DNA from: Sedimentisphaerales bacterium
GTDB lineage: Bacteria; Planctomycetota; Phycisphaerae; Sedimentisphaerales; SM23-30
DNA: 64,000 nt
Reading direction: 5' to 3' (one strand)
Assembly (NCBI GenBank): GCA_963666285.1
Contig: OY762711.1
Below are positions 22,170 through 50,985 of the stretch, one piece after another. Position numbers and translations under genes: made by a program. Below the pieces are notes generated by a model, which saw only the letters and a list, made by a program, of their open reading frames with translations, had not been told where the DNA came from and searched no databases. The number at the start of each line of letters is the position of its first letter. Position 1 is the first letter of the stretch.

Positions 22170-23190
22170 GGTGGTAGGCGGCGGAAATGGAGCGGGAATG
22201 CGGAAAGCGTTTCTGAAGTATAAAGTATAAAGGATAAAGGATAAGAAGAAGAAAAAAGCGAGAAGAGAGAAGTGAGAAGATGGGTGGTAAGCTTCGCTAA
22301 ATGAAAAATGAAAAGTTTAGGTGCCCTGATGTCGTTGACATCAGGAATAATTCGCTGCGCGACGTATTTTAAATCGCGCGGGTGGGCTAAGAGTTGAACC
22401 ACGAATCAACACCAATGAACACCAATAATATATAAGGTGACTCGCTACCGCTCGTGTTTTATTAATATAGGTACTTGGGAAGGAAATCCCGATGTGTCGG
22501 GAAAGCTGATTAATTGTTGCAGGTGGGGCGGGAAAATGCTTTACTACTGAAATAACTGAAGAGACGGAAAAAGGATATAGGATATATACGACGTATGTGA
22601 CATATCGGAAGGATGAAAGAAATGTGGTCGCTGCGTGAGGGCTGGTTTATTGACAGGCAGGGATGCCTATCCTACTATGTCCTTAACGATGTCGGTTTGG
22701 TTGGAAATTGCAATTGTGTTATCTGGTGAAATATTACATATTATTTTAATCGAAGAGACGAATAAATGGATGAAAATTAAGTATAAAAGATTAAAGAAAA
22801 CCTGGACAAACACGAACAGAACACAATAAAAACACTATTGCTCGCAGAGGCCGCAAAGAATATTATTTCACCATGAAGGGAATGCTTAAAATTAAGAATT
22901 CAAAATTAAGAATTCAGAAAATAACTGACATTAAAAACCACGGCTACGGGTAAGTACAAATAACTATAAGGTGACTTGCTTCAGCCTTCGCTAAAGCTAT
23001 GGTTCGACAAGACCGCACGTGATTAATAATTCTGAACCACTGATGCACGCGGATGGACACCGATAAGAAAATGTTTAGATAACTTGACGGTAATTTTTTC
23101 ACGAAATTCACGAAAGAACACGAAAAAAAACGATGTTGCTCGCAGAGGGCGCAGAGGCCGCGAAGAAAATTACTTGTCACTGTGAAACAT
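22170..23190 (+). repeat. Cluster of short modular repeats (7-mer and 9-mer purine tracts, small hairpins)
   Basis: AAGGATAAAGGATAAG; AAATGAAAAATGAAAA plus CCTGATGTCGTTGACATCAGG (22319-22356); AACCACGAATCAACACCAATGAACACCAAT (22397); AACCACTGATGCACGCGGATGGACACCGAT (23035); CACGAAATTCACGAAAGAACACGAA (23100); CTCGCAGAGGGCGCAGAGGCCGCGAAG (about 23139). Confidence 0.8.
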
Positions 23191-23306
23191 GGCATAATAA
23201 GTTTTGATATGTAAGGAAATAATTTGGGCTGGCAAGAAGAGGGCTGAGGGGGTAGAATTGGGTGAAATTCTATTAACTGGGATTGCACATATTGAAAGGT
23301 GTTATT

Positions 23307-24269
23307 ATGAAAAGAATCGTTTTGCTGATAATAGCGGCGCTGGCGTTGGCAGTATTGCCGTTTGGCAGGAGTATGGAAGAGAATGACAGCGGCAGCGGTT
23401 TGGTATGCAGCTGGGAGTGCGGCCGGGATTGTAACGGCGGCGGAGCGGTTGAGCAGGATTGCGCGGATACGACCGGGTGTATAAAGAAAGATGAGCGAAA
23501 ATACGATATTGAGATAATGACTCAACTAAGTAAAGATATCCTGGAGATGAAAGTAAGCGAGACGACGGAGGCGACCGGGGTTCTGTTATGCCAGCTTATA
23601 CGTAATAAGGCCAAAGTTGAGGGGATGGCGGGAGCAGCGGATAAGAGAAAGAGCCCGGCGGAGATATATACAGACTGTATCGATAGTGTGGTGGCGGTGG
23701 CATATGTCTATAAGTGTGATAAATGCGAAAACTGGCATGCTAACGCCGCAACCGGTTTTGTGGTCGGGCCGGACGGAGTGATCGTAACGAACTATCATGT
23801 GATCGGTGCGACTAACGCGTCAGCGTTCGGGGTGATGACACATGACCGTAAAGCCTACCCGGTTAAGGAGATACTGGCAGCGAGCCAAAAGGATGATATC
23901 GCAATATTGAAAATAGAAGCTGAGGGGCTGAAGCCGGCAGCGATTAATACTGTGCCGGAGATCGGCTCGGCAGTGTCGGTTATCAGCCATCCGGCGAATC
24001 ATTATTATACCATGACGACCGGGATAATAAGCCGGTATCTGAAAACCGAAGGAGATATCAGCAGGATAGAGATAACCGCGGATTATGCATATGGCTCGAG
24101 CGGCGGGCCGGTATTTGATGAGTGCGGTAATGTTGTCGGGATTGTAAGAACGACAAGCTCGATATATTACGGTAAAGATGAGAACGGTAATAAGAGTAAC
24201 CTGCAGATGGTGGTGAAGACCTGTGTGCCGGCGGAAAAGATATTGGAGATGGTGGAAATGGAAGAGTGA
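23307..24269 (+). CDS. Trypsin-like serine protease (S1) with signal peptide and Cys-rich N-terminus
   Basis: TNYHV, DDIAILK, GSSGGP triad motifs; ATG at 23307 with AAAGG RBS. Confidence 0.9.
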   Translation: MKRIVLLIIAALALAVLPFGRSMEENDSGSGLVCSWECGRDCNGGGAVEQDCADTTGCIKKDERKYDIEIMTQLSKDILEMKVSETTEATGVLLCQLIRNKAKVEGMAGAADKRKSPAEIYTDCIDSVVAVAYVYKCDKCENWHANAATGFVVGPDGVIVTNYHVIGATNASAFGVMTHDRKAYPVKEILAASQKDDIAILKIEAEGLKPAAINTVPEIGSAVSVISHPANHYYTMTTGIISRYLKTEGDISRIEITADYAYGSSGGPVFDECGNVVGIVRTTSSIYYGKDENGNKSNLQMVVKTCVPAEKILEMVEMEE

Positions 24270-24490
24270 GAAGGGAGAAGCGAGAAGGGAGAAGCGAGGA
24301 GGGAGAGGTAAGAGGGAAAAAGTAAGAGGTAAGAGGTAAGAGGGAAGAATTGAGGTACCAGAAAGCTGCATCCCTTCGATGAACTCAGGGCAAGCGGCAG
24401 ATCGTTTAAAATTTGAGATTAATAGATCGTCTAAAAACATGTTATAATAATATCCTGATCGGTCAGTTTGAGTAACTGAAACTGACCGAT
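24267..24490 (+). repeat. Composite repeat: purine heptamer tract, CCCTTCGATGAACTCAGGG hairpin and GGTCAGTTT inverted repeat
   Basis: GAGAAGG/GTAAGAG units as at 16640-16708; 3' part is homologous to the 156-bp tandem unit at 41437; ATCGGTCAGTTT..AAACTGACCGAT at 24458-24490. Confidence 0.82.
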
Positions 24491-24513
24491 GGCAGGTTTG
24501 GCAGACATAAGTG

Positions 24514-24711
24514 CTATTTTTCGTCGGAATCGCCGGCAAGCCATGCCAACCAGCCGTGGTCGGTATCGGTATCGACCCGTTCTAATTTTATTAAGTCCTC
24601 GCCATCCCACACACCGCCGCTGAGAAGAATAACAAGTTTTTCGATTTTAGTAGTGCCCGATCCAGTATCTTTTTCCCATTTATCAGCTCCGCCGGGATAA
24701 GGTTTTTTCAT
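24514..24711 (-). CDS. Small hypothetical protein (65 aa), possibly truncated
   Basis: AAGGAG RBS; starts 13 nt after the stop of the upstream lipoprotein gene; ends next to the repeat. Confidence 0.5.
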   Translation of the reverse strand: MKKPYPGGADKWEKDTGSGTTKIEKLVILLSGGVWDGEDLIKLERVDTDTDHGWLAWLAGDSDEK

Positions 24712-24724
24712 GACAGACTCCTTG

Positions 24725-25495
24725 TTATTGAAGTAGTTTTTGGCAATAATTTACAGCAGTTATGACTTTTTTATTGACTCTCAGGATAGTAGAAATCCTG
24801 GCGAGCCGTTCTGATTCGGAATTATAAATACCAATATAATCCTGTGCCGATTCTTTGTTGATTTTAATATAGTTCTCCAGGTCGATAATAGACAATTTCA
24901 GGTTAGCTAAATAGCTATAAAAGTTTCCACCGCTGTTTATCAGACGGGATTCCAGCTCACCTTCATTGAGAATATACCTGTTAAACTCGTTGAAAGGATA
25001 TTCGTTGATTTTCAGCATGGCAGCAAATTCGCTTTCCAGCTCAGCAAGTATTTTTTGGGCAACCTGGTCACCCTGCCTTAACCTGATTTTGAGAATATCC
25101 CTGATAAGATCAATATTGTCGACGGAGAACTGAGTAACATTGACGTCGGCAACGGAATTAAAGATATCCGGCAGTCTTCCACGACCATTCAACTCTGAAT
25201 AAGCATCTCCGGTAATGAATACCGAATCAATAACGAGTCCGTTTTCGCTATCATTACTCATATTGAAATAGTTTATCAGGGAGACAGCTTCCCAGCTGCC
25301 GTCATCTTTCTGTTGCGGCGGGATGACAGTTGCCATGTGGGTACTGGCTGAGAGCGAGCCGGATACCGGTTTTGACGGGTCAGGCCTGGTTTCAAAACTT
25401 AAAGCGAGCTTGCTGGACTCGTAGAAATAAATTGAATCGCAGCCGGCGAGAAAGTATGCCGTAACCATCAATAATAAGATATACAGTTTTTTCAT
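24725..25495 (-). CDS. Hypothetical lipoprotein (beta-rich N domain plus helical C domain)
   Basis: Lipobox LAGC; ATGA overlap with the upstream gene. Confidence 0.8.
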   Translation of the reverse strand: MKKLYILLLMVTAYFLAGCDSIYFYESSKLALSFETRPDPSKPVSGSLSASTHMATVIPPQQKDDGSWEAVSLINYFNMSNDSENGLVIDSVFITGDAYSELNGRGRLPDIFNSVADVNVTQFSVDNIDLIRDILKIRLRQGDQVAQKILAELESEFAAMLKINEYPFNEFNRYILNEGELESRLINSGGNFYSYLANLKLSIIDLENYIKINKESAQDYIGIYNSESERLARISTILRVNKKVITAVNYCQKLLQ

Positions 25496-25893
25496 TTTTT
25501 ATCCCCATTAACATCATTTACATTATCAAATATTTTTTCATTGATTTTCCTGATCTGCTCACCATTGGTGATAACAGATTTGGAAGCGTCGCCACTTGCG
25601 ATAAGGTGACAGAACCTGATCTTATCGATTCCCCTGGCACCGACATGGCAAAATGAAACAAGCGACATGGCATCGGCATCGGCAGAATTACTTTTGCGAG
25701 GAACGACAGTGAATACATCGCGTTCGAAGCCCACCATAAGTTTGCTGGTGCCGACCTCCTTTACCGGCTCCAGTACAATACCCAAATTAATATCCTGTAC
25801 ATATACAATCGGTTTGGGCTTACCGGAATTTGCGGTATTGCAGCCAACGAGGCAAACCAGGACCATAGAAACAGAAAGAAAACGTATTATCAT
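25492..25893 (-). CDS. Hypothetical lipoprotein, paralogous to the N domain of 24725-25495
   Basis: Lipobox LVGC; TVVP..DAMSLV..SGDA versus TVIP..EAVSLI..TGDA. Confidence 0.8.
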   Translation of the reverse strand: MIIRFLSVSMVLVCLVGCNTANSGKPKPIVYVQDINLGIVLEPVKEVGTSKLMVGFERDVFTVVPRKSNSADADAMSLVSFCHVGARGIDKIRFCHLIASGDASKSVITNGEQIRKINEKIFDNVNDVNGDKK

Positions 25894-26432
25894 TGCGAGT
25901 CTCCTTTTAATAAGAACATCTCAGGTTTAGAATCATTGTTAGTATTTATATATAAGACATTGTCTCGGTCAGACGGCAGCCTGATAACCGATGAACTGCT
26001 GCAGCCGATAGTAATACCCGGACGGTGGCCGGAGAGCCTGAGAGCAAGCCCAAAAGACTGATCCTGCAGAGCGACGGTATCGAGAGCAATCCAGTTAAAA
26101 GAATCTTCGGTCGGCAGCAAAACGTAATTGGAAGAGTCCAGATCCGGCATGTGCAATTTTTTAGTGTTACTTTGGGTACCTTCGAGATAGTAGAATCGTT
26201 CGGTAGAACCGAGGATAATGCCAAAGTCGTCTTTTTTGGTAATCAGGCATATGCCGGCACTGTTTAGTTTGACCGCGGAAGCGGTATTATCCTGATTGGT
26301 ATAAAACTGCAGTTTTGCCGGAGGGAACGAAACTATGCCGGTACTGCAGCCGTTACACAGAAATACAGCAATAGCCATTACAGCTATAAGAATTTTTTTA
26401 TTGGTAATCCATTTTAACATAGTATCAGTCAT
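25890..26432 (-). CDS. Hypothetical lipoprotein, beta-strand rich
   Basis: Lipobox-like CNGC; ATG at 26432 with AGGA upstream preferred over the ORF-track start. Confidence 0.72.
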   Translation of the reverse strand: MTDTMLKWITNKKILIAVMAIAVFLCNGCSTGIVSFPPAKLQFYTNQDNTASAVKLNSAGICLITKKDDFGIILGSTERFYYLEGTQSNTKKLHMPDLDSSNYVLLPTEDSFNWIALDTVALQDQSFGLALRLSGHRPGITIGCSSSSVIRLPSDRDNVLYINTNNDSKPEMFLLKGDSQ

Positions 26433-26577
26433 ATATCCTAGGTAAAACACACGCAATTGTCTTAGTAAAACAATTTTACTATTTTGGAAATATTCAAATA
26501 CTACCTCAACCAAATAGTAAAAAGTAGAGTTTTTGAAAAATACCAACGGATACTAAAAACACCTGAGTAATAAAAGT

Positions 26578-26607
26578 ATTGTACCGCTTTGCGCAAGCAG
26601 GTGTCAA
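26578..26607 (-). promoter_or_regulatory. Sigma70-type promoter for the lipoprotein operon
   Basis: TTGACA-N18-TACAAT on the minus strand. Confidence 0.6.
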
Positions 26608-26865
26608 TATAATAATATGTAAAAACCGGATTGGGGATATGCTGCATGAGTGAAGCATAATCGGGCCAAAGACTTACAGCCGGCAGTCAAAGAGATGTAT
26701 GGGTAATATTGCAGGTACTTCAGGATAGATGCCGGATAGACGTGGGTTGGGGCGAGATATAAAGGTTATTTTTTGATAAGTAGTGTCTTGACAACTGTTA
26801 AAAGTACGGATAATATGAAAGTAATTATAAAAATGACGGTTTAGGGATAAAGTATCATATCCCGC

Positions 26866-27118
26866 AGTGCGGTTTATGCTTCGCATCATATACATGACGC
26901 ACATTTGACTGTTCAGCATTTCACGCAAAGGCCGGAACAGGGCCAATTAAGTGAAAAATGAAAAATGAAAAATTAAGGTGTCCCGATGTACGTTGACATC
27001 AGGAATAATTCGCTTTCGTCTCACATTTTGTTTAAATTCAAAGCGTTGCAGGAAGGCCCTTTTAGGCGATTTACCAAAGGCACTTCGTTATTGCAACTTG
27101 AAAACTGCGAAAGTAAAC
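26866..27118 (+). repeat. Dispersed multi-hairpin repeat, copy 2 (with internal CC(C/T)GATGT..GACATCAGG module)
   Basis: AGTGCGGTTTATGCTTCGCATC...AAAACTGCGAAAGTAAAC. Confidence 0.92.
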
Positions 27119-27358
27119 CCGCGAATGTTCAGAAAAAGAGGTATCTGGTAAATATCATTTCGGAATATTCTTTATAATTTTTTTCATGGATGAACGTTTC
27201 ATACACATTGTGAATGATTTTGTCCGATCGGTCGAAAGGTAAGTAAAGATTAATATAATCATTTATACCAAGCTCGAACGGGCATTTTCAACTGTTATGG
27301 GTATATATATTTGCATATATCATTTATTAAAAAACGCTTACATAAAGGGGATTACAAA

Positions 27359-30166
27359 ATGAAAAAGGCATTGTTTGTTATTGCCGCGCTCGTGGGATTA
27401 TTTACTATTGAACTATCGGCTTATGAGTTCAAGGCCGGTGACTATGTCGTTATGGAATACGACGGCTACCAGATGCGGATAGATGTTGAAAAATATAATA
27501 AGAAGGTAAACGGATTTTCGGCACTCAGGTTAATTAATGAAGAAGATTATTACGGCGGCGGCAGCTATGTAGCGAAAGTTTCAGGTATCGGCTGGGCTTC
27601 TGTTGGAACAGATGTTCACGATGCAATGACCAGTGAGTACCTGGGAATAGAATATTATTACCCGCCCTGCCCTTATGACGGCGAAATAGAATACGGTGAT
27701 GAGGTTGGCACCAAAACCGAATGGAGAGGATATTTATGCCTGGATGGAGAAGAGCCAGAGGATTATGACCGGACAGTATGGGAAGTAGTAGGCTACGAGG
27801 ATGTGAGTGTGCCGTATGGCGACTTTACCAATGCAATGAAAGTGTTAATAAAAGAATATTACTCTTATGACTATTATGATGAAGACCTGGACCCATATGA
27901 TATCGCCGAGGATGACTGGGAACTATCAGAATCCTGTTCGACCTATGAATGGATTGTGCCGACGGTTGGTACCGTTCAGATATCCGACTATGAATATTAC
28001 GGCGAGGAAGGACCTTACCCGACAGAACTGGTAAGCTGCAAGATAAACGGTAAGACAAACCCGGAACCCGAAGAGCCTGCAGGTCCGGCGGAGTTGTCAC
28101 TGAACATGACAGGTAAGAAGATACCGACATCGGTTTTGTCAGGGACAGAGACCAAGCTTCAATTCCAGGTGGAAATAACCAATGACGGCGGCAGCAGCTG
28201 CGAGAAAGGCGAGACGGTAGATTTGTACTTTTACGCGGAAAATGTTGCTACCGCAGCACAGAGAGCCCTTGGCAGTGTCGAAGGATTTTCGATAAGCAAC
28301 CTGGCAGCGGGCAAGACAAAAAAAGCCAAAGGAACGTTAGTGCTGCCAAGCGATATGGAAGAAGGGACATTCATAATAATAGCAGTATGTGGCGACCTGG
28401 AAGCAGCTTACTATGAGTATATCACAGTTGAAGAAGGTAACGTAACCCTTTCATTGGAAGTGAGTAAATACAAAATACCACCATCAATAATAGCCGGTAC
28501 CTCATCAAAATGCAGCATCGACCTGATAGTGACAAATGACGGCAACCTTAGTACGGATAAGACTGATACTGAGACAATAGAGATTTATGCAGAGTCAAAG
28601 ACAAGTGACTATAGCGATGAGCTTAACTCGGTAGAGGCAAATATCGGCGGCATGAAGCCTGGTAAGAGCAAAAAAGTTAAACTGCCGGTGGAATTTCCCG
28701 CCGATCTGCCGGAAGATGATTATGAAATTGTGGTCTATTTTGGCGATACGAGCCTGATTGTAACTGAGGTATCGATAAGCGAACCTACGGTGGAGTTCGA
28801 AATCGAGTTGGAAAGTTCAGATATTCCATCGGCGATAGTGGCGGGAACAGATGTTGATTGCGAACTAAAGCTGAACGTTACTAATTGCGGCAATATATGT
28901 TCTGAGAAAGATGAAGCGTTAAATATTCAAGTAATTGCCAGGTCGGTAACAGACAGTTCTGAGCAGACACTTGTGTCAGAAGATGCAGGGGTGGGTAATT
29001 TTAAGCCGGGAAAAGGGAAAGGTATCAAGCTGCCGGTGGCATTTCCAGCTAATATGGCAGAAGGAAGCTATGACATAGTGGTAAGCTACGACGGAGAGGA
29101 ACTGGCAGTGACGACCGTCGGAATAAGTGAACCATATATCGAACTGACAGGCTCGACCGATGAAACCGACAGCCCGCCGGCGATTTTCGCAGGCCAGGCA
29201 GGCGGTGTAGAGATTGACCTGGAGATAACCAATAACGGCAACGACACAACCGCAAAAACACAGACAATAGATATTGCCGTGTATCTCAAACCGGAAAACG
29301 GAGATAATACCCTGCTGGAAACTCTGACCGGTCAGGATATCGGCGGACTGGCAGCGGGAAAGAGTACGAAATTGAAACTCGATGCCGATGTTCCGGCTAC
29401 CCTGGAAAGCGGCAGCTATCAGCTTGTGGTGCATATTGACAGCAGTAATGCGATATCGGAGAATAATGAAGATGACAACTGGCTAACAATCGACTTTGAG
29501 ATAATAATAATCGATAGTCTTGCAGATATAATGGAGCCGTCATTATCTGAAAGCTATGATTACTCAGCACTGGTAAAGGGTGACTATTTCTACGGTTCGG
29601 GCCAGGCTACTATCAACGGTGTTTTCTATGAAGAATTCGAATTTGATGATGATTCAGATGCTCATGATTATTCGCTGAGCTGGGAAGACGACGGTGTATA
29701 TTTTTACGAATACAGCATAGGCAGCGGCTATGCTCATTATTATTTTAGCACGGACGATGACATCCTGCTGACATCTAATGAACTGGCACTCAAAACAACA
29801 ATAAAATCAACTAAAACCGGGTATGTCGAACATCGTGTTTATGGTTTAGATTTTGACTTTGACGCAACCATAGTAAGTGAGTTTGAAATCGAAAAAATGG
29901 AAACAGTAAAAGTCAACGGCACAACATACCAGGCATATAAGATTAACTGGAGTTTCTCGATCAGCGGATCAGATATTCTGGATCTGACAGATTATGGCGA
30001 CAAGGCATATAATTATACAGATACATTTGAACAGAACATAACCTATTGGGCGGTTCCAGGTGTCGGCGTGGTCAAACAGACCTCGAAAGGCAAGTTAAAA
30101 CTAAGTATTAACGGTATGGGAACAGACAACTGGACCTTTGACTATACCAAGGAGCTGATACAGTAG
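27359..30166 (+). CDS. Secreted acidic protein with about 4 CARDB/Ig-like repeats
   Basis: Signal peptide MKKALF..LSA; four (I/V)TN-x-G...G(K)-x-KK..L..P..L.EG.Y repeats; ID.SNAISENNEDDN CARDB signature. Confidence 0.8.
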   Translation: MKKALFVIAALVGLFTIELSAYEFKAGDYVVMEYDGYQMRIDVEKYNKKVNGFSALRLINEEDYYGGGSYVAKVSGIGWASVGTDVHDAMTSEYLGIEYYYPPCPYDGEIEYGDEVGTKTEWRGYLCLDGEEPEDYDRTVWEVVGYEDVSVPYGDFTNAMKVLIKEYYSYDYYDEDLDPYDIAEDDWELSESCSTYEWIVPTVGTVQISDYEYYGEEGPYPTELVSCKINGKTNPEPEEPAGPAELSLNMTGKKIPTSVLSGTETKLQFQVEITNDGGSSCEKGETVDLYFYAENVATAAQRALGSVEGFSISNLAAGKTKKAKGTLVLPSDMEEGTFIIIAVCGDLEAAYYEYITVEEGNVTLSLEVSKYKIPPSIIAGTSSKCSIDLIVTNDGNLSTDKTDTETIEIYAESKTSDYSDELNSVEANIGGMKPGKSKKVKLPVEFPADLPEDDYEIVVYFGDTSLIVTEVSISEPTVEFEIELESSDIPSAIVAGTDVDCELKLNVTNCGNICSEKDEALNIQVIARSVTDSSEQTLVSEDAGVGNFKPGKGKGIKLPVAFPANMAEGSYDIVVSYDGEELAVTTVGISEPYIELTGSTDETDSPPAIFAGQAGGVEIDLEITNNGNDTTAKTQTIDIAVYLKPENGDNTLLETLTGQDIGGLAAGKSTKLKLDADVPATLESGSYQLVVHIDSSNAISENNEDDNWLTIDFEIIIIDSLADIMEPSLSESYDYSALVKGDYFYGSGQATINGVFYEEFEFDDDSDAHDYSLSWEDDGVYFYEYSIGSGYAHYYFSTDDDILLTSNELALKTTIKSTKTGYVEHRVYGLDFDFDATIVSEFEIEKMETVKVNGTTYQAYKINWSFSISGSDILDLTDYGDKAYNYTDTFEQNITYWAVPGVGVVKQTSKGKLKLSINGMGTDNWTFDYTKELIQ

Positions 30167-30359
30167 GATAAGACAGCAAATACCTGTATAAGGGATAAGG
30201 GATAAGTGGAAAGCCGCGTTGCGGCAAACTAACTTATTGTTAGCTGACGCATATGTTCGTTTAGTTTGAAACTGCTGTAATATTTAGATTTGCGATTGCT
30301 CATGAATGACATATGTAAAAACGATAGATAAAAAACAAGAATACGATGAATAGCAGTAT

Positions 30360-30401
30360 AGAGCATATGAGAGGATAAACTCTTGTATGCTCTTTTTTTT
30401 T
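30360..30401 (+). terminator. Intrinsic terminator
   Basis: AGAGCATATGAGAG-GATAAA-CTCTTGTATGCTCT followed by a T-run. Confidence 0.65.
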
Positions 30402-30611
30402 GAACTTTGCGGCAAAAGAGGCTGAATTTTTTTAGGTAGGTTTTAAATATGGATATTTTTTATACCAAAATACGAGTGTAGAATTGAGAATAAGACAAAC
30501 ATTAAAATTCTTAAAATATATCGTCGAAACGCCCTGTTTTTTCTTTGACCCTGCAATATGATATTTGGCATAATAGGAATATGTCTTCTTGATAAATTCT
30601 TATTATCATAA

Positions 30612-30794
30612 AGTGCGGTTTCGCACTTTTGACTGTTCAACATTACACGCAAAGGCCAGAACAGGGCCTTGTGAATGAAAAACTTTATATTTAAATGTAT
30701 TTCCGAGCTAATTCTCGAAAGTACATTTAATTCAAAGCGTTGCAGGAAGGCCCTTTTAGGCGATTTATGCAACTTAAAAACTGCGAAAGTAAAC
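30612..30794 (+). repeat. Dispersed multi-hairpin repeat, copy 3 (simplest form)
   Basis: AGTGCG-GTTT-CGCACT...GGCC..GGCC...CGAG..CTCG...GTTGCA..TGCAAC..AACTGCGAAAGTAAAC. Confidence 0.92.
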
Positions 30795-30915
30795 TTAAAC
30801 AATTAGAGAGAAATACCAGACCAAACAGAAGGTACTGGCTTACCTGAAGAACGTGTACTGACAGAGAATATAGTAAGTAGTTAACGCATCAGTTTGAAAA
30901 GAAAAAGGGGTTAGA

Positions 30916-33900: not shown

Positions 33901-35079
33901 AACTACCTGGACGCGGACGGATATTTGAACCGGGCATACCAGACGGCATTGAAATATTTCCAGGTAGCAGACGGCTGGGGATACATAGTCGGAACATATA
34001 ACGAGGTTGTTTATGTCGACCTGATAGAATCTCTGCGTGAAGAAGGCTGGACAAGCCAGGCAGATGCCTTGCAGGCGGAATGGGATGAGAAGGTAAAATA
34101 CTTCATCTTCGATAAGGAATATCCATACGGTTCGGAATATGCGATGGACTCGACCGCATTTGAGAGCACTCATGCACTGGTGAAATGGGCGATAGAGAAC
34201 GGCCTGGAGCCGGACGCGGAACATCCGGAGATCGACCAGTCTAGAATCGAAGAATTCATGCACAACCAGATGAAAGCAAACCTGGCAGTTCGAGGGTGTA
34301 TCGAACCGTCATTTTATACCTACGGCAGCGACTATCGCGTATGGGGTCAGGCCCGCTATACATTGAGCTATATGTCGCAAATGGGCGGCTGGGCAGTGCT
34401 GGACTATGCGTTTAACTGGGCGGATGATCCGATAGATTATATCAGACTGGGCTACGGCTCTTACCTGAGTTCATGGGCGTTGATGAACACCGACCCGACC
34501 GGTGCGAATCAATACTGGTATCCATCGGCTAATAATGACGGTGCGATCGGCTGGGCATTCAAGCCTGAGAAGAACGGACCGATATGGCTGCAGGAGCGTA
34601 ACCAGGACCGGGGCATCTGGTATTATAACGGAGAGATTGATCTTGGCCTTTGCGGGGCGCTGCGTATGGCGAAATCGGTGGTGGCAGATGACCCGATATT
34701 CGGCTTGTTTGGTTTCGGCTGCGAGGTAGATCATGCCGGGACTGATTACGAGGTAATATTGAAAGACGGGCTGCGTGAGTGGCTGGTTATGAACAACCTT
34801 GGAATAGAACTGCATCTTAACCGTGACGCCTTTGCGGCCGGTATGCCGGTAGTGATAAGCGAGAGCAAAGACACGTTAAGCTTTACACTGGAGAATGAAA
34901 GGTCGGACAGCCATATAACAACACTGACGATAAGCGGCATGGCAACCGGCAGTTACAGCGTAAAAGTAAACGGGGTAGAACAGACAACATTAACATTCAC
35001 AGATTTGGCTGATTCAGCTTCAATTGATCTTAACATTGGAACAGGATCGACCATTGCGGTCTCAATAACGAAGCTGTAA
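30916..35079 (+). CDS. Large secreted modular protein: ConA-like domain, Ig/FN3-like (YYWRVDE) modules, dockerin-like pair, C-terminal DUF5695-like putative glycoside hydrolase
   Basis: Signal peptide; GDIDFDGIVDITDL..W and GDIELDGKINLPDF..W; YPYGSEYAMDSTAFES, LSYMSQMGGW, EIDLG motifs. Confidence 0.78.
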   Translation: MSTIIRTCLQVCIFTMLITSLSFAEVIVDTFDESHNYLTEGVSDTIWDGFIGQGTGETITELNASQTASGQLYISSQNGRWEPGWVDLGPFLYINVEGDFSATVRVVSASATNWNTAGLMARAATDSDGGAGEDFESIEYFKAISQNMARTINNGSENEFALSSDFMPYLRLRRVGNDFYHEYSNDGSNWIAMSGSPISRTDLDGLSLQVGIHHATYVDTLGYFQFDDFAIEVEDPDNEAQLESPADGATGQAADVTLQWTAGAAIDPTGGHDLYIGQDYDEVESATRSSHPNVDYYSLDTNYYQPGNLTPGTTYYWRVDEVNMPDIWKGQVWSFSILGSQSAGAIPADGSTGVEILSVLSWQNGLGADRHDIFLAESYEAAADAEKYMGDIDFDGIVDITDLAELVSKWLGGSCSGTGCGDIELDGKINLPDFAMMAKDWQKVSPAEYKASQPATNNTYDPGLLSPATTYYWRVDEYDYDETGLSSGNIWSFTTAADGPLDFGNDRFDLTFDLSSGGFSKVQRTGDSFETNFVGEPGWLLGDLEMTYRINSGSWQNAKTSASDDNRKVALSKDGEATLIDVTYPTASALSGGIKDFDIEQQWRLDDGHLSLAVTITNTTGGTLELGDLAFMLPFNTDYNGLDTDTIQTGRVIRHGYFSGHGSHCYWTRVNGMPDFLVMSTPGSDTRFEYWDNIADSDAEFRAYVYSGVAGPARAGNWRQEHTTKELAAGETIELGLSFSWAESLAEVRERLYEDGDIDIECVPGMTIPQDLHAVVKLRTKHNIDSLTAEYPAETTIEYQGTSDEDTHLYKISFGHLGENIIKVNHNGAEQTILEFYCCEPLETLYKKRSAHMTDYEQVVNPSVWYDGLFGEWDMRSGTLRTPDNTDGMDLPWWIYVICCDDPGNAHAPFLAGKNVRFPVQAEIDALEYHIENYIWGGMQYTDTEAYPYGIIGVPTWEYNRENDPTHYWRVFDYPHIVMMYYHMYEIAKYYPDMVNYLDADGYLNRAYQTALKYFQVADGWGYIVGTYNEVVYVDLIESLREEGWTSQADALQAEWDEKVKYFIFDKEYPYGSEYAMDSTAFESTHALVKWAIENGLEPDAEHPEIDQSRIEEFMHNQMKANLAVRGCIEPSFYTYGSDYRVWGQARYTLSYMSQMGGWAVLDYAFNWADDPIDYIRLGYGSYLSSWALMNTDPTGANQYWYPSANNDGAIGWAFKPEKNGPIWLQERNQDRGIWYYNGEIDLGLCGALRMAKSVVADDPIFGLFGFGCEVDHAGTDYEVILKDGLREWLVMNNLGIELHLNRDAFAAGMPVVISESKDTLSFTLENERSDSHITTLTISGMATGSYSVKVNGVEQTTLTFTDLADSASIDLNIGTGSTIAVSITKL

Positions 35080-35096
35080 CGCCATCTAAAAACGGG

Positions 35097-35141
35097 GAAA
35101 ATGCCGACAGTCGCTTTCCGGGCAGTCGGCATTTTCATTTT
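35097..35141 (+). terminator. Intrinsic terminator
   Basis: GAAAATGCCGAC...GTCGGCATTTTC just after the stop. Confidence 0.65.
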
Positions 35142-35150
35142 TAAAGTGAT

Positions 35151-35397
35151 AGTGCAACTTCACACTTTTGGCAATCCAACTTACATGCAAAGACCGGAAC
35201 AGGGCCAATTAAGAGAAAAATGAATAATGAAAATTGAAGGTGTCCCGATGTACGTTGACATCAGGAATAATTCGCTATCGTCTCACGCTAAGTTTAAATT
35301 TGATGTATTTTCTTCTTCGTCAGCCTCGCCCTAACAGCGACATAAATCAGAACAGAAAATATTAAACAGGAGTGCTCTAATAACTGCGAAAGTTAAT
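35151..35397 (+). repeat. Dispersed multi-hairpin repeat, copy 4 (diverged)
   Basis: CCGGAACAGGGCCAATTAAG..AGGTGTCCCGATGTACGTTGACATCAGGAATAATTCGCT..AACTGCGAAAGT; near-identical middle to copy 2. Confidence 0.88.
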
Positions 35398-35568
35398 TTA
35401 TAATATGCAGGCGTAAATTCGAGAAATTTAGGATTGAAATGGTCAAATTGCCAGCATATAATGGAAATCACTGATATCGAATTTTTCAAATGCAACTTGA
35501 TTTAAGCACTGGTTTATAACCATCGTATTTACCAAATCTGGCAGATACAAATTTAAAGGAGCAACATT

Positions 35569-36906
35569 ATGTCTGAAAAAAAGATTGACCGCCGCAGTTT
35601 CCTGGCAACATCAGCCGCCCTATCATCATTCACAATAATCCCGAGCCATGTCCTGGGCGCAGATGGTAATACCGGCGCAAATGGCAAGCTGAATATAGCA
35701 GGCATAGGAATAGGCGGGATGGGCAGCAACAATCTGCATAACCTGGAGAGCGAAAATATAGTAGCATTATGTGATGTAGATCACGGTTATGCCGGGCATG
35801 TTTTCAACCGATATCCAAATGCAAAGCGATACAAAGATTACCGGGAAATGCTGGAAAAGGAAAAGAATATAGATGCCGTGATGATTGCTACCCCCGACCA
35901 TTCTCATGCACATATTACTATCGACTGCATGAAGGCGGGCAAGCATGTTTATTGCCAGAAGCCGCTGACGCATACTCCGTTAGAGGCCCGCAAGGTTAAA
36001 GCAGTAGCCAAGGAAACCGGGGTAGTCACCCAGATGGGTATCCAGGGTCATTCGGCAGAAGGTATCCGTACGATAAGCGAATGGATATGGTCCGGCGCGA
36101 TAGGCAAGGTTGAAAAAGTAGATGCATGGTGTTCGCTGACATATTACCCGGCGAACCAGGCATACTGGTGTACAACAGAGTTGAAGGTTCCAACGGAAAA
36201 GCCTGCGATACCGGATACACTGGACTGGAATTTGTGGATTGGTCCGGCCCCATACCGCGATTATCATCCGACCTACCACCCAGCCAAATGGCGTGCCTGG
36301 TACGATTTCGGCAGCGGCTGGATGGGTGACCGGGGAGTGCATACCTTAGATATAGTATATACCGCATTAAAACTAAAGCTGCCGGAAGTAATCAGTGCCA
36401 CTGCATCAGATATCAATAACCAGGTTCATCCAATCGCTTCAATAGTCAAGTTTTATTTCGGCGAACGGGAAGGAATGGCACCGGTTGAACTGACATGGTA
36501 TGAGGGGCTGGAAGTACCGCGTCCGGACGAGCTGGAAGACGGTCGCAGCCTGCCAAATGAGGGCGGAATACTCTTTAAGGGTGATAAAGGAACAATTATG
36601 TGCGGCATTTACGGCGACAGCCCGCGTATAATCCCGGAAGCGAAAATGAAGGATTTCAAGCAACCTAAGAAGACACTAGCAAGAATTCCTCACAGCCATG
36701 AGATGAACTGGGTAAACGCAATCAAAACAGGCGGCAAAGCAACGGCAGATTTTGAATATTCAGCGGATTTGACAGAATTTGTTTTGCTGGGCAACTATGC
36801 CAAGCGTACAAGGTCAAAGCTATATTACGATGCTGAAAATGCCCGGTTTACTAATAATGACCAGGCAAATGCATTAATGAATAAAACATATCGGACAGGC
36901 TGGTAG
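35569..36906 (+). CDS. Gfo/Idh/MocA family oxidoreductase with Tat signal
   Basis: DRRSFL; GIGIGGMG; ATPDHSH; HVYCQKPL; DRGVH. Confidence 0.93.
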   Translation: MSEKKIDRRSFLATSAALSSFTIIPSHVLGADGNTGANGKLNIAGIGIGGMGSNNLHNLESENIVALCDVDHGYAGHVFNRYPNAKRYKDYREMLEKEKNIDAVMIATPDHSHAHITIDCMKAGKHVYCQKPLTHTPLEARKVKAVAKETGVVTQMGIQGHSAEGIRTISEWIWSGAIGKVEKVDAWCSLTYYPANQAYWCTTELKVPTEKPAIPDTLDWNLWIGPAPYRDYHPTYHPAKWRAWYDFGSGWMGDRGVHTLDIVYTALKLKLPEVISATASDINNQVHPIASIVKFYFGEREGMAPVELTWYEGLEVPRPDELEDGRSLPNEGGILFKGDKGTIMCGIYGDSPRIIPEAKMKDFKQPKKTLARIPHSHEMNWVNAIKTGGKATADFEYSADLTEFVLLGNYAKRTRSKLYYDAENARFTNNDQANALMNKTYRTGW

Positions 36907-37603
36907 TTAAGTTCTCTAATTGACAAGACGGGCAGTTTGAAAGGTACCCGGTGTATATGATTCTGTTTGATAGCTCGGAGGGAAAGTAATGATAATATCA
37001 TAGCACTCGAAGCAGAAACTGCTACAGCAGGTGTAAGAATATATGAAAAAAAATTTTTACTATTTAACATGTGTTTATATAAATACGTAATGTGTAAGAG
37101 ATGATAAAATACTGGTAATACAAACACAATAAAACAGACAAATGCCTCAGCCTTAAATGGAGACAACCTAAATATACGAAGATTAGAATTAATCCACATT
37201 AAGCATAAACTCTTATGGAAAAACAACTAAATTGACCATAAAACCACACCGCACAGAAAAAACTGTCAAACACGCAACAGACTCTCCGCCTATTCAGTCA
37301 GTAATTAAAAACAGCAAAAAAATACCTGTAATAATATAGTCATCCTATATTCTGCTAGATGTCAGGTAAAATTAAAACTCATGTCATGTTAAAATAGTAA
37401 AATTGGGGGCTTTAAGTAATGCCCATTTGTGTAGTATATATCGATTATTCCAGTTTACATGGAATATTGTTTCAGATATGAATGTGTTTTTGTATGTCGG
37501 TATACTATTTTAATTATCCAACGTCTAATTTTATGGTAAAATTCAGTTTGGTTCTAAACATAATAATCTTTATGTAACTGTTTAATATTTGAAAGGAAAA
37601 GGA

Positions 37604-39576
37604 ATGAGAAAGAGTAGATTATTGTATTTACGTCGCTGTTACTGGCATTGACCTTAAACGTTGTCCGGGCAGAGGACCCTGACTATAGCAACGATGCGGA
37701 AAATGCCCAGGTAATTGCAACGGACGGCAGCCATATTTATGGTGAATTAGCGACAAGTGCCGACCAGGACTGGTTTAAGATAACTGCACCGGCACACATG
37801 CGGTATTCGATAACCCTTAAAGGAGAATATGCAGCGGGATACAAAGTTGTAGATATTTTCCAGGCCGATGAGTTTGGCACCCTGTACAAAACATTAAGTG
37901 CAACAGTCTGGAGTAATGATATCCAAAGCAGAACATTTTATATCGAAGAAGACTATGATGTTTTCATAAAGATCTATTACGATGCAGGCGATTATGAATT
38001 TTACGTCCAGAACCTTGGTCAAATACTGCCGGACAATTATTCGACTGACTGCTCAGCCCCGACATATTTAGCCGTTGAAGATGAACCGCAAATCGGGATA
38101 CTGGCACATTATGAAGATGAGTCACTGGAGAGTGACTGGTTTACTTTTGATACAGAACCGCTGCACAAATATGAAATTAATATTACTCGCAGCGACAATG
38201 CCTATGTTAATATCAGGTTATACAACTCTGACTGCGAACAATTAGTTGGCAACAACAGCACCATCACAACAACAAGCTGGTTTGGCGAACCATATAAGAT
38301 TATGGTAACAGGCGATGCTGGTTACCTGGGCTCATATTACACACTCGATATTACAGACCTTGGTTTATATTATGATGATTATTCCAATGTATTTTCAGGA
38401 GCAACAGAGGTACCTGTTAACGGGACAATGATTAATGGTGAGATTGAATTCAGTTCTAACTATCATAGCGATGAAGACTGGTTCAAGTTTACCCCATCAG
38501 TTAACCATCTGTATAGAATTACCCATAAAGGTGAATACAGTAAAGGCTATAAAGTAGTAAAGATTTACCAGATTGATGAATTTGACACCATGCATGAAAC
38601 ACTGAATATAACATGCTGGAGTGACGACATTCAATCCAAGACATTCTTTATCGAAGACCCGGAAGATATATATCTGAAGGTGTATTACGACAATGGTGAA
38701 TACCAGTTTTATCTTGAAGACCTGGGAGCATATACACCAGACGGCACGGAAGACAGCTGCGTGAACCCAGTCGATATAACAGTTAATGCCAGCCCGATAT
38801 CCGGCACATTAAGCCATAATCAAGATGGAAGCCTGGAAAAAGACTGGTATATTTTTGAGACAGAAGCATTACACAAATATGAGATAAGGTATACCAAGAG
38901 CGACAACACATACCTTGATATGAGAATATATAATGCTGACTGCGGCCAGGTAATAGGAAATGGCAACAACCATACGGTTGTAAGCTGGACAGGTGAAGAT
39001 TACAAGATCATGGTAGGCGGTGACGCAGGATACCTTGGCACATATTATACACTGGAAGTTGTAGACCTAGGCATATTTAGCGATGATTATCCAAACACAG
39101 CAGCTCAAGCTGTAGAAATGCCCAAAGACGGAACCCTGATAGACGGCACAGTAAACTACAGTGCAAACTATCACGGTGATGAGGACTGGTTTACCTTTAC
39201 AGCTGCATTAGATGGAACATATACCTTCACCCTGACAGGTGAATATGCTATGGGTTATAAATCAATATACATATACTCTATGGACGGCTATGGCCAGCTG
39301 CATAGTGTTCGCAATACAAGCGTATGGTCAGACAGTATTAATACTTTTGACGTAACCCTGGGAGCAGGCGAAATATATGTAAAAGTATATTATGACCTGG
39401 GCGACTATTCGCTAAGCGTATTGTCTCCAGATCCTCGCTGCGGCGACCTGGATCATCCATACCCTGTCGGAGACGCTAACCAGGATTGTACAGTTGACCT
39501 GACAGACTTTGCACTAATGGCGGCTAACTGGCTGACCTGTTCAGCACCTGGGTGTGAAGAGGAGATAATTGAATAA
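37604..39576 (+). CDS. Secreted protein with 5 PPC-like beta-sandwich repeats and a C-terminal dockerin-like motif; apparent 1-nt frameshift in the signal peptide
   Basis: Five D-W-(F/Y) repeats in A-B-A-B-A order; GDANQDCTVDLTDFALMAANWL; ATG at 37604 (after AAGGA) is out of frame with IIVFTSLLLALTLNVVRA. Confidence 0.78.
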
Positions 39577-39631
39577 CGGATAATAAATATACGAACCGGC
39601 TGAATTGCCAGCCGGAACAAACCCAAAATAT

Positions 39632-39669
39632 AAAGACTGCCTGGAATAGAACCGGACAGTCTTTTTTTT
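39632..39669 (+). terminator. Intrinsic terminator
   Basis: AAAGACTG...CAGTCTTTTTTTT. Confidence 0.65.
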
Positions 39670-39713
39670 GTTAAATCTGGAATTCGGAATACAGTATAGA
39701 TATAATATAACAT

Positions 39714-40667
39714 ATGTTTTTGACCTTGATATTAAATGTAGGATGCGTGTTTCTGATGATGGTGCCCGGTTTTGTCGGTCGGCGTAAAAGCTGGCTGGAC
39801 GATAGCGGGGTATTGTCGATTTCGAAACTAATGCTGTATTTCTTTTACCCATGCCTGATCTTTAGTTCGATAACGAAGAATTATTCGCTGTCGGAGCTTG
39901 GAAGCTCAATCTGGCTTCCGGTTGGTTCGGCGGTGATAATGCTGGCCGGTTACCTGATCGGGCTGATATACTGTATGTTTGACAGGAGCATAAAAGGCGA
40001 AAATAAGCGATCATTTTTGTTTCAGACGACGATGAATAACTACAGTTTTTTTCCACTGGCGATAATACTGTCGATGTATGACAGCAGCCTAGTAGCAGGA
40101 TTGATATTGTCAACACTGGGAGCAGAACTGGTGATGTGGACGGTCGGTATGCTGACGATAAGCGGGCATAAACCAGGCAGAAAATCGCTGGAGGCATTGT
40201 GCAGTCCGCCACTGATGGGAATGTACGCGGCACTGGCGGTACTAGTGGTATTTCATATATTCAAAATCGATCGTTCGATATTTACGGAGCAGGGAACGAT
40301 CGCATTTTATTTCCATAGCACACTGGAAAGGGTGGGAATGGGAACGGTTCCGATTGCGATGACAATTGCCGGGGCAAGAATGGCAGTATTGAAACTGCAT
40401 GATGTACATAACAGGACAGTATATATTCTTTCGGTACTGAGGCTGGCAGTGATACCGCTGGCGACAATCGGGTTGATATACCTAGCACCAATACAAGAAG
40501 ATTATAAGATAATATTGACAATAGTTGCGGTTATGCCGGTAGCGATGAACAGCCTGCTGCTGAACGAGATATATGGCGGTAACCGAGAACTGATAACCGG
40601 CTCGGTTCTGCTGACGCATCTGCTGTCGATCGGGACAATACCGGTGCTGTTATATTATTTTCTATGA
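39714..40667 (+). CDS. AEC family (auxin efflux carrier/membrane transport) protein
   Basis: PCLIF, NYSFFPLAI, SPP, LRLAVIP, MPVAMN; about 10 TM segments. Confidence 0.88.
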   Translation: MFLTLILNVGCVFLMMVPGFVGRRKSWLDDSGVLSISKLMLYFFYPCLIFSSITKNYSLSELGSSIWLPVGSAVIMLAGYLIGLIYCMFDRSIKGENKRSFLFQTTMNNYSFFPLAIILSMYDSSLVAGLILSTLGAELVMWTVGMLTISGHKPGRKSLEALCSPPLMGMYAALAVLVVFHIFKIDRSIFTEQGTIAFYFHSTLERVGMGTVPIAMTIAGARMAVLKLHDVHNRTVYILSVLRLAVIPLATIGLIYLAPIQEDYKIILTIVAVMPVAMNSLLLNEIYGGNRELITGSVLLTHLLSIGTIPVLLYYFL

Positions 40668-40679
40668 AAATAATATAAC

Positions 40680-40905
40680 AAGTGAAGAGTGAAGAACGAA
40701 GAGTTAAGAATTATTGTGTTCGCCTAACGGCTCACGCTTTGTTAAAAACATAAGTGTTGCGGAAGGCCTTTTAGGCGATTTACCAAAGGTAGCTCGTTAT
40801 TTCAACTTAAAAACTGCGAAAGATAACGTATAGTGAGTTAAACGAAGAGTTGAGGTGTCCTGATGTACGTTGACATCAGGAATAATTCGCTATCGCTCAC
40901 GCTTT
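40680..40905 (+). repeat. Dispersed repeat copy 5 (right half) flanked by heptamer and hairpin modules
   Basis: GAAGGCCTTTTAGGCGATTTACCAAAGG..AACTGCGAAAG (40752-40827); AGGTGTCCTGATGTACGTTGACATCAGG (40853). Confidence 0.88.
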
Positions 40906-40950
40906 TTAATTATAATCAAGCTCAATAGAATTGATAAAGAAAGATATAAT

Positions 40951-41421
40951 ATGGAAATCAAACAGATAGGCACGATACATTCGCCATTTATTGAGGCAAG
41001 CGGAACACCGATACAGCCAAAATTTGCCAAAGATGCAAACGGCACAGTTGTGGTAAATGAGGAATATGCCGAAGGATTGAAGGATCTGGACGGTTTTGAA
41101 CGTATATGGCTGATATATTATTTTGACCGGGTAAAGAATGCAAAACTTACAGTTGTGCCGTATATGGATACGGTTGAGCACGGTGTATTTGCCACTCGTT
41201 CGCCAGCGAGACCGAACAAGATAGGCATGTCAGCGGTAAAACTGGAAAAGGTAGAAGGTAACACCCTGCATGTAAGCGGGATAGATATTCTGGATGGAAC
41301 TCCCCTGCTGGATATAAAGCCATATGCGAAACGGATGGACTATTTTGATGTGGAGCGACAAGGCTGGCTGGGCAAAGTCGGCAACCATGAAGGCAAAGCC
41401 GATGACAGGTTCCATAAGTAA
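40951..41421 (+). CDS. trmO: tRNA (N6-threonylcarbamoyladenosine(37)-N6)-methyltransferase TrmO/TsaA family
   Basis: IGTIHSPF, GVFATRSPARPNKIGMS, IDILDGTPLLDIKPY; ATG at 40951. Confidence 0.9.
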   Translation: MEIKQIGTIHSPFIEASGTPIQPKFAKDANGTVVVNEEYAEGLKDLDGFERIWLIYYFDRVKNAKLTVVPYMDTVEHGVFATRSPARPNKIGMSAVKLEKVEGNTLHVSGIDILDGTPLLDIKPYAKRMDYFDVERQGWLGKVGNHEGKADDRFHK

Positions 41422-41917
41422 CTCAAACTGACCAATGGTCAGTTTGAGAGGCATAAGAGATAAGGGATATGGCATAAGTGAAGGAAAGCCGCGGCCCTTC
41501 GATGAACTCAGGGCGGGTGGCAAACTAATTTTAATATAATAATCTTAATAGATTATCGAAGAACATATTACAATAACATGCAAATCCCAATCGGTCAGTT
41601 TGAGAGGCATAAGAGATAAGGGATATGGCATAAGTGAAGGAAAGCCGCGGCCCTTCGATGAACTCAGGGCGGGCGGCAAACTAATTTAAATATAATAATC
41701 TTAATAGATTATCGAAGAACATATTACAATAACATGCAAATCCCAATCGGTCAGTTTGAGAGGCATAAGAGATAAGGGATATGGCATAAGTGAAGGAAAG
41801 CCGCGGCCCTTCGATGAACTCAGGGCGGGCGGCAAACTAATTTTAAATATAATAATCTTAATAGATTATCGAAGAACATATTACAATAACATGCAAATCC
41901 CAATCGGGCAGTTTGAA
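41422..41917 (+). repeat. Tandem array of three near-identical 156-157 bp units
   Basis: GG(T/G)CAGTTTGA recurs at 41437, 41593, 41749, 41906; starts with perfect hairpin CTCAAACTGACC-AAT-GGTCAGTTTGAG. Confidence 0.95.
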
Positions 41918-50397: not shown

Positions 50398-50487
50398 AGT
50401 ACGGTTTAGCTTCGCATCATATACATGAGAAACTTTTGACAGTTCAACATTACACACAAAGGTCTTTGCAAGGCTTTGTGAATAAAA
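50398..50487 (+). repeat. Dispersed repeat copy 6 (left half)
   Basis: AGTACGGTTTAGCTTCGCATCATATACATGA..CTTTTGACAGTTCAACATTACACACAAAGG. Confidence 0.85.
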
Positions 50488-50970: not shown

Positions 50971-50985
50971 TACAGGAGAGTTATC

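Follow-up and report, generated by a model that had tools for sequence, protein, structure and literature searches.

We argue that the repeats scattered over a 64,000-nucleotide (nt) stretch of the genome of a Sedimentisphaerales bacterium (assembly GCA_963666285.1, contig OY762711.1) are stacked parasitic DNA, in which tiny hairpin modules were gained by other repeats and then reshuffled among them. We call the whole stretch the window; it is G000:C1:4672001-4736000 of a 6.35 Mb genome with 41% G+C that is 97% complete. The sequences show three layers in the stack. The first is the hosts: a ~185-bp miniature inverted-repeat transposable element (MITE), presumably moved by a DDE-type transposase, together with heptamer arrays that carry small anchor hairpins. 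The second is micro-elements of 15-31 nt gained by the hosts, by tRNA copies and by genes, with 0-6 (occasionally more) target bases replaced. In the third, recombination between host copies reshuffles filled and empty alleles, which gene conversion would spread.

The preliminary description of the window listed five pairs of filled and empty sites. Aligning slices of the window shows that all five are real, with their anchors where it had placed them and with sharp junctions. The modules of pairs 1 to 5 are named M1 to M5 here, and M6, M7 and Mx are further hairpin types found genome-wide. The filled copies of pair 1 have 22 nt (846-867 and 26876-26897) that the empty copy at 30612 lacks. Pair 2 has a net gain of 21 nt (41640 versus 30209); M2 substitutes 2 loop bases relative to the copy at 30209, but only one A relative to the other, matching empty alleles of the same hairpin (H2) in the genome. 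Pair 3 differs by 28 nt (40858-40885 versus 40716), a junction read from the sequence directly; automatic alignment put the gap wrongly. The gain is 31 nt in pair 4 (22981-23011 versus 22432) and 18 nt in pair 5, or 19 nt at 60023. The filled copies of pair 2 at 41484, 41640 and 41796 are all present, but they share a 156-bp tandem repeat and amount to one event. The features of the window, all on the plus strand, are as follows.

837..1001, +, host MITE copy 1, internally deleted, M1 filled and M5 empty
846..867, +, M1, 22 nt, a twin mini-hairpin in the loop of the MITE left-end hairpin
22324..22350, +, a 27-nt form of M3 in an anchor hairpin that follows a heptamer array and is not part of a MITE
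22432..22456, +, host H4, empty allele (13 empty genome copies)
22981..23011, +, M4, 31 nt, in host H4 (22966-23021)
24372..24393, +, M2 variant whose closing pair is T-A, in the loop of H2 (24361-24403), a host hairpin
26867..27118, +, host MITE copy 2 with the beta arm, three sites filled (M1, M3, M5)
26876..26897, +, M1
26981..27008, +, M3, 28 nt, within a heptamer-plus-anchor arm that is itself a MITE insert; third nesting level
27073..27090, +, M5, 18 nt
27270..27302, +, host H9, empty allele, absent from the pairs of the preliminary description (genome: 11 empty, 1 M1-filled)
30209..30232, +, host hairpin H2, empty allele, 5-bp stem and 3-nt loop
30613..30794, +, host MITE copy 3 with the alpha arm, every site empty; the form seen in related genomes
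35152..35398, +, host MITE copy 4, in degenerate form and with an approximate right end; M1 site empty, M3 at 35243-35270
40716..40827, +, empty anchor hairpin (pair 3) joined to a MITE right half (copy 5), with an M5 variant at 40782-40799
40858..40885, +, M3, 28 nt, in an anchor hairpin
41437..41904, +, a 156-bp unit three times in tandem, its H2 filled by M2 every time (41494-41516, 41650-41672, 41806-41828)
50399..50480, +, host MITE copy 6, left part only, M1 variant at ~50408-50429
59931..60067, +, host MITE copy 7, internally deleted, M1-type variant at ~59939-59959, M5 variant (19 nt) at 60022-60040

The insert sizes are discrete genome-wide. Site 1 of the MITE is mostly 13 or 35 nt long, and the middle site is 25 nt versus 48 (M2), 51-52 (M3) or 56 (M7) nt. 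Site 5 is empty in 86 of 126 near-full copies, 79 of these having exactly 6 nt, and is filled in the other 40, with 24 or 25 nt. Each module has 8-80 copies in the genome, far above chance. The short-read contigs of the source study (three sequencing runs from one study, as contigs only, with no RNA run listed) agree with the window without differences over 23102-26895 and 35260-40877 and break at repeats, and therefore the filled/empty pattern is not an assembly artefact.

Pairs 1, 3 and 5 reside in one dispersed repeat of ~185 bp, with 347 blast loci including the 126 near-full copies. It has no coding capacity and no Rfam match. Its ends, as read from the copies, are imperfect ~20-bp inverted repeats. 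Of 90 copies, 36 have 5-bp flanks without any difference, where shuffles give 1.5, and 57 have flanks with at most one mismatch. Since the ends are inverted and flank identity exceeds chance, its sequence marks this repeat as a MITE with a 5-bp target duplication, apparently an unnamed one. It is detectable in 9 of 41 genomes searched, and no autonomous partner of 0.5-4 kb with MITE ends was found in this genome, to which that search was confined. The middle of the MITE is the alpha arm in 60 copies and the beta arm in 55, with 11 unclassified. The alpha arm is ancestral. The beta arm is a heptamer array with its anchor hairpin, which is itself a repeat family of the genome. Its site is empty in 33 of the 55 copies and holds M3 in 14, M2 in 7 and M7 in 1, and these are mutually exclusive. 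The beta arm is inserted in the MITE and the modules in the beta arm, so there are three nesting levels. M1 is filled in 44 of the 126 copies and M5 in 40, independently of each other (Fisher p = 1.0), and each shows partial linkage to the type of arm (p = 0.0001 for M1, 0.015 for M5). All four filled/empty combinations exist for every pair of MITE sites.

We are confident that the filled forms are gains. Host H4 is empty in 13 copies and holds M4 in 4 and Mx in 2, so M4 and Mx are alternatives there. Modules that exclude one another at a single site, in the MITE as in H4, do not go back to a single long ancestor. Among 20 MITE copies from four related genomes, several of them partial, M3 and M5 occur in none and M1 in one. 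Hairpins of the form TCC...GGA substitute the same 6 nt of tRNA-Asn, beside an intact copy. M2 adds one 8-residue peptide, in frame, to Pfam-confirmed genes, and the AlaRS, kinase and MutL homologues of this genome have a gap at the M2 place, although that comparison is distant and approximate. One can imagine the opposite scenario, where the ancestor was one long repeat and slippage deletion removed its inner hairpins to give the short forms. Hairpins are deletion-prone, some junctions have a 1-nt ambiguity, and one copy from a related genome (L244) has M1 at the same site, so that the M1 insertion may be old and later lost. However, this would leave the alternative modules per site, the discrete lengths, the empty outgroup copies and the modules in tRNA copies and conserved genes without a cause. 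Slippage deletion may hold for single copies, but as a general explanation it is contradicted and very improbable. The picture that the preliminary description had set against nesting, with ragged junctions, one long ancestor and modules in a single host, is itself refuted.

A copy phylogeny, which had been proposed for polarity, helps only in part. The tree of the 126 copies (107 backbone columns) rejects single clades for M1, M5, M3 and M2 (AU p 8e-6 to 0.017) and needs 30 changes for M1 and as many for M5. Yet linkage in the MITE backbone falls with distance (rho -0.29; mean r2 0.126 below 15 nt versus 0.037 above 45 nt). The backbone recombines, and therefore the tree cannot count insertions. 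For the same reason the patchiness of M3 and M5 need not mean repeated insertion. Since each of them has essentially a single context, the simpler reading of their sequences is one old insertion that was probably scattered by recombination.

The sequence comparisons support M1, M2 and Mx as independent micro-elements, each with at least three unrelated hosts. M1 has four that also occur as empty alleles: the MITE, H8 (4 empty, 11 filled), H9 (11 empty, 1 filled) and a heptamer array in which one A is replaced. It lies mostly within another heptamer array in sister genomes, and its second hairpin has compensatory variants. Its pattern is found in 5 of 151 genomes of the order, nearly all of one genus; its 21 viral matches look like chance. 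Mx replaces the 3-nt loop in three hosts. M2 has about 42 copies in this genome and at least four hosts here, namely the MITE arm, H2, the tip of a long palindrome and a site downstream of a four-helix-bundle gene. The exact 22-nt M2 pattern is found in 7 of 41 genomes of the relatives set, in 20 viral stretches and in at least 122 genome stretches. Going by their titles, 80 loci among the matches listed come from at least 12 phyla, and none of the 80 is a cyanobacterium. In other genomes it resides in REP-like hairpins (REP, repetitive extragenic palindrome), in heptamer arrays, in its own parent repeat and also within genes; there it lies in frame on the sense strand of AlaRS, RecJ, M48 peptidase, kinase, MutL-like and tRNA-ligase genes (L171, L164, L139, L111, L091, L167, L134). 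M2 has a single orientation within each host. The base preceding it is a pyrimidine in 144 of 145 matches, and its 3' tail varies. Its closing pair covaries, being C-G in 69, T-A in 9 and other in 4 cases at genes, and T-A in 16, C-G in 11 and other in 5 in this genome.

M4, with 9 copies in 2-3 possibly related hosts and 0 viral matches, is a plausible independent micro-element. M3 and M5 are essentially tied to one site each: all 80 copies of M3 have one left and one right context, and 55 of 56 copies of M5 are in the MITE. M3 and M7 open with a hairpin of the TCC...GGA kind, and M3 equals M6 with six extra tip bases. The preliminary description, which took the units to be independent micro-elements, is thus right in part. 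Its phrase 'mostly palindromic' is loosely true, but M5 and M4 fold no better than shuffles.

Apart from a 1-nt ambiguity, the inner modules have no target duplication. They were either added without loss or took the place of 1-6 nt, and the edits vary over that range between hosts. The bases at -1 and +1 of M2 agree in 107 of 145 cases versus 96.5 expected. The filled and empty sites compared are paralogous sites and tRNA copies. A de novo bubble search was dominated by chance until it was filtered for recurrence. The replication-strand bias of the modules is weak and mixed.

The preliminary description had also proposed that insertion is targeted to structure, and support for this is weak. 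Reconstructed M2 targets are modestly more structured than control windows that include coding DNA (25 of 139 fold at z < -2 versus 20 of 266), and the M2 junction is in a hairpin loop in 49 of 139 versus 63 of 266 controls. M1 and M2 also enter unstructured heptamer arrays, and M2 coding genes.

What could move such small units? It had been said that no gene in the window explains them. This stands for the window, where no repeat-associated nuclease was found among the 34 open reading frames (ORFs) scanned of 96, but a candidate lies elsewhere in the genome. It is the only small stand-alone GIY-YIG gene there (L006, G000:C1:2936025-2936294), and its 90-residue protein keeps the invariant Y, Y, G, R, H and E residues. 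The 3' end of the gene overlaps a broken tRNA-Asn copy with two Mx-type hairpins. The clade of this nuclease, which we call the tRNA-Asn clade, is found in 12 of 151 genomes at E 1e-24 and in relatives adjoins an intact tRNA-Asn. The broken tRNA-Asn of relatives has the same 6 nt replaced by a TCC...GGA hairpin, and the exact 18-nt M6 of this genome flanks genes of the clade in two other genomes (L386/L393/L395; L391).

Another clade is linked to M2. It was seeded from six genes with M2-like flanks, to which 80 metagenome loci and 17 phylum loci were added, and it matches the UPF0213 structures 1ZG2 and 1YWL. All nuclease-gene counts cover loci with a parser-recognised protein (109 for motif counts, 136 for the tree). 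With the seed loci removed, the M2 core lies within 250 nt of 41 of 73 UPF0213-type genes versus 6 of 58 other small GIY-YIG genes. Its density by these genes drops from 3.4 per kb at 0-125 nt to 0.08 at 375-500 nt, with none further than 500 nt away, and the upstream cores are oriented 39 to 8. The loops of the flanking hairpins at these nuclease genes are often extended by further nested hairpins, M2 included. A third clade sits at tRNA and tmRNA ends. An M4-like core, whose pattern was refined after viewing the flanks, lies near 13 of 17 of its genes versus 12 of 105 others. Hairpin labels on the protein tree (FastTree, 97 columns) change 20 times for M2 versus 41.7 when shuffled, and 15 versus 31.9 for the TCC type. 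Hairpins of the M2, TCC...GGA and M4 types each match the DNA beside one group of small nuclease genes.

Other candidate partners were considered. No local mobiliser was found next to M2 among the 102 scanned of 151 nearby ORFs, no GIY-YIG relatives were found in viral contigs, and in this genome, 97% complete, nothing matches the GxxExxY and DUF559 families. The 10 matches to four-helix-bundle genes have heptamer arrays and anchors on their flanks; by eye no module brackets them consistently, and they were rejected as a partner. At G000:C1:45310-46043 such a gene and its heptamer-like flank are amplified in tandem (two full copies and a partial third).

Some further observations concern the nuclease genes. 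L006 and its broken tRNA-Asn lie ~39.5 kb from an intact tRNA-Asn (G000:C1:2975774-2975847) on the same strand, and this spacing suggests that an island integrated between the two. The unit of GIY-YIG gene and broken tRNA-Asn is present as three tandem copies in each of two genomes of the same genus (L383/L392/L394 in G003; L386/L393/L395 in G001). In two genomes of the order, small GIY-YIG genes lie in what by eye appears to be 23S rRNA sequence (L225:1504-1845 and L232:1432-1707).

We tentatively favour, from the analysis above, that most micro-elements are minimal recognition hairpins of small GIY-YIG nucleases, one type per clade, and that their insertion is nuclease-assisted. The map we infer assigns M2 to UPF0213 and M4 to the tRNA/tmRNA clade; to the tRNA-Asn clade go the TCC...GGA hairpins, with M6 and Mx and, on account of their likeness, M3 and M7. 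The closest model is Ssn. It binds its hairpin in one orientation and solely as single-stranded DNA, with the cut just upstream, and altered loops are tolerated (PMC11893778). By analogy, a nuclease here would bind its own hairpin in single-stranded DNA and cut at a distance of a few bases on its 5' side. Elsewhere, a strand that has stalled or been nicked would then switch template, copy the hairpin up to the cut end and return, and host repair would seal the product. Inserts made in this way should share a constant junction at the foot of the hairpin, end opposite it in a brief tail whose length varies, cost the target a few bases and leave no target duplication. A fixed foot with a variable tail fits the M2 junctions. 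Inserts in loops would persist because such enzymes tolerate loop changes.

Several points weigh against this. No module has been observed to move, and GIY-YIG enzymes hydrolyse DNA and are not known to carry out strand transfer. No orthologous empty site for the window loci is found in the source-study contigs, whose joints at repeats derive from paralogues. This genome has no match to the UPF0213-type clade at E 1e-20 despite about 42 copies of M2, nor to the M4-linked clade at E 1e-17 despite 9 copies of M4. Among 120 genomes of the phylum, exact M2 is in 6, the UPF0213-type clade in 15 and both in 2, which by hand calculation is not significant. The TCC label is not exclusive, being on 21 of 121 genes outside the tRNA-Asn clade, and M3 itself is beside none of the nuclease genes. 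M1 and M5 have no cognate gene, and the M1 motif is near 0 of 109. Related nuclease genes are not independent, so p-values overstate. The pyrimidine ahead of M2 may simply be part of the unit. For Ssn, too, what that portion of PMC11893778 demonstrates is cutting and not mobilisation.

Another route is passive. The hairpins would still be GIY-YIG sites, but ordinary replication template switching among the plentiful hairpins and then gene conversion would spread them, with the nucleases having no part in insertion. In line with this, host copies recombine and their linkage decays with distance, M3 and M5 keep to one site each, and some variants are plain loop swaps with the host stem kept. The junction edits of 1-6 nt that differ by host and the two of three nuclease clades missing from the genome also fit. 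However, M2 has the same 22-nt core, nearly always after a pyrimidine, in genes and heptamer arrays without donor homology, in at least 12 phyla and in phages, and it keeps one orientation per host, whereas unassisted switching should yield ragged ends and many kinds of hairpin. We consider passive accretion rather unlikely.

The remaining two alternatives replace the nuclease altogether, and both are improbable to the same degree. An HUH (Y1) transposase, either a RAYT (REP-associated tyrosine transposase) or an IS200 TnpA, could move the modules as single-stranded peel-and-paste units without target duplication. This chemistry suits scarless insertion, and there are Y1 genes in the genome, three identical and a fourth broken, plus a single RAYT-like gene. 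The E. coli RAYT cuts at a CT dinucleotide, and many M2 copies end in CT. Yet no module is beside the RAYT-like gene (by eye), none of 102 ORFs adjoining M2 matches is a Y1 gene, the unit ends vary between hosts, and it is at GIY-YIG genes that the hairpins crowd. Alternatively, short hairpin RNAs could be joined into transcripts or reverse-transcribed and then recombined into the chromosome, as has been proposed, in the part of that paper used here, for the spread of yeast GC clusters (PMC4478555). Reverse transcriptase matches exist at three places in the genome. Of 66 M2 copies embedded in ORFs (by crude ORF calls), 50 are on the sense strand, as are those in all 7 Pfam-confirmed genes; of the 42 in this genome, 24 run in the same direction as both neighbouring genes and 3 are opposed. 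However, in the sense orientation all three frames stay open, so that some of the bias can be put down to selection; neither M1 nor M5 has a clear transcription bias, and the portion of PMC11893778 at hand reports Ssn as inactive on RNA.

We thus retain nuclease-assisted insertion as our tentative choice. It can be pushed further: each mobile DNA of 15-31 nt would be the bare recognition hairpin of its own ~90-residue GIY-YIG clade, including the uncharacterised UPF0213, with the cut in single-stranded DNA setting the unit end and host repair copying the unit into repeats, tRNA genes and proteins. A general system of this kind is doubtful. If true, it would be transposition without strand transfer by a transposase, and it would give a general answer to the spread of small dispersed repeat (SDR)-like elements and CGTC-type REPs.

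The phenomenon is not new in kind. The modules are nearest in behaviour to cyanobacterial SDRs and yeast GC clusters, and in gene layout to Ssn with its NTS repeats and to RAYT/REP systems. They cannot be classed as Ssn proper, as RAYT-REPs or as MITEs. SDR1-8 of the Nostocaceae, from Elhai et al. 2008, reportedly measure 21-27 nt and have conserved secondary structure. The modules here are likewise very small with precise filled and empty sites, and structure is conserved in the covarying closing pair of M2 and the compensatory variants of M1, though not in M4 and M5. They differ from SDRs, which were compared by description only, in being in a planctomycete, in having one family in at least 12 phyla, in stacking several families per host and in their GIY-YIG link. 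According to the passages drawn on here, SDR5 inserts between bases 3 and 4 of HIP1 (PMC4390886), and SDRs are confined to the Nostocaceae among HIP1-rich cyanobacteria (PMC5861425).

The Ssn system (GIY-YIG, cd10448; NTS/SRM, Chenal et al. 2025, PMC11893778) shares with ours the layout of a small single-domain gene and oriented hairpin repeats that litter the genome. Its authors, in the portion used, call that layout insertion sequence (IS)-like and suggest it as a possible explanation of repeat expansion (PMC11893778). On the tree the module-linked clades fall outside the clade with CGTC-type flanks, and the CGTC motif is near 0 of 78 M2-clade genes. As far as that portion goes, the Ssn paper shows cutting and an effect on transformation, but neither mobility nor minimal hairpins inside other repeats (PMC11893778). 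The nucleases here would at most work like Ssn. REPs, REPINs and BIMEs with their RAYTs, including GTAG- and CGTC-tagged REPs, are tagged hairpins of 20-40 nt with variable loops that, in the sections used, also insert into or next to other repeats and occasionally in frame in genes (PMC3116915, PMC3733652). REPINs are paired units with a Y1 transposase, whereas the modules are single units without a GTAG tag that lie within other repeats, and the genes they go with are GIY-YIG genes and not RAYT genes. Yeast mitochondrial GC clusters such as GC42 are gene-less palindromes of ~40 nt that, by the relevant part of their description, merge, shuffle and spread through recombination at shared flanks, with endonuclease help proposed (PMC4478555). 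Unlike the modules, they are organellar and have a putative 2-nt target duplication (PMC4478555). The inner modules differ from MITEs in having no target duplication and in unit ends that vary between hosts. No paper was found that ties such micro-inserts, or UPF0213/YhbQ, to hairpins flanking GIY-YIG genes, most subscription journals being outside the search; the part of PMC4679880 used here contains nothing on these modules.

It must be noted what else the window holds. Its genes, from the 34 ORFs scanned, are for polysaccharides, sugar degradation and housekeeping, with one IS3-type transposase. The IS3-type element (16774-18008, a helix-turn-helix ORF and an integrase-core ORF) is immediately behind a heptamer array. 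Purine-rich tandem heptamer arrays lie at 16630-16722, 22238-22320, 24270-24355 and 30185-30208, and most end in a small anchor hairpin, the site preferred by M2, M3 and M6. The first two of the tandem 156-bp units at 41437-41904 are 99% alike, a recent local amplification. A cluster of degenerate decamer-like repeats at 22400-23170 is presumably of the kind that flanks GxxExxY genes. The region 18512-22041 has low-G+C orphan ORFs, an ankyrin-repeat gene and a short Rhs-like fragment (20579-20797), resembling a decayed polymorphic-toxin immunity region. Next to MITE copy 6, a small ORF and an HTH_3 gene (50671-51333) look like a toxin-antitoxin or regulator pair. No tRNA was found in the window. 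Rfam gave no match there at gathering scores, and 26700-30900 has only two weak chance matches.

What is new here is several hairpin families in one host, a polarity test and a three-way map of clades to hairpins that includes UPF0213. The match of three hairpin types to nucleases offers a testable candidate mover for some of the smallest mobile DNAs known, and the map pairs enzymes with substrates in a way that lends itself to oligonucleotide tests. The map also proposes a substrate for the UPF0213 proteins, whose structures are solved and which are listed as hypothetical, and the set of sequence-specific single-stranded DNA nucleases could widen beyond Ssn. Essential proteins gain 8-residue loops from the inserts, and intergenic repeats become mosaics, which matters for annotation.

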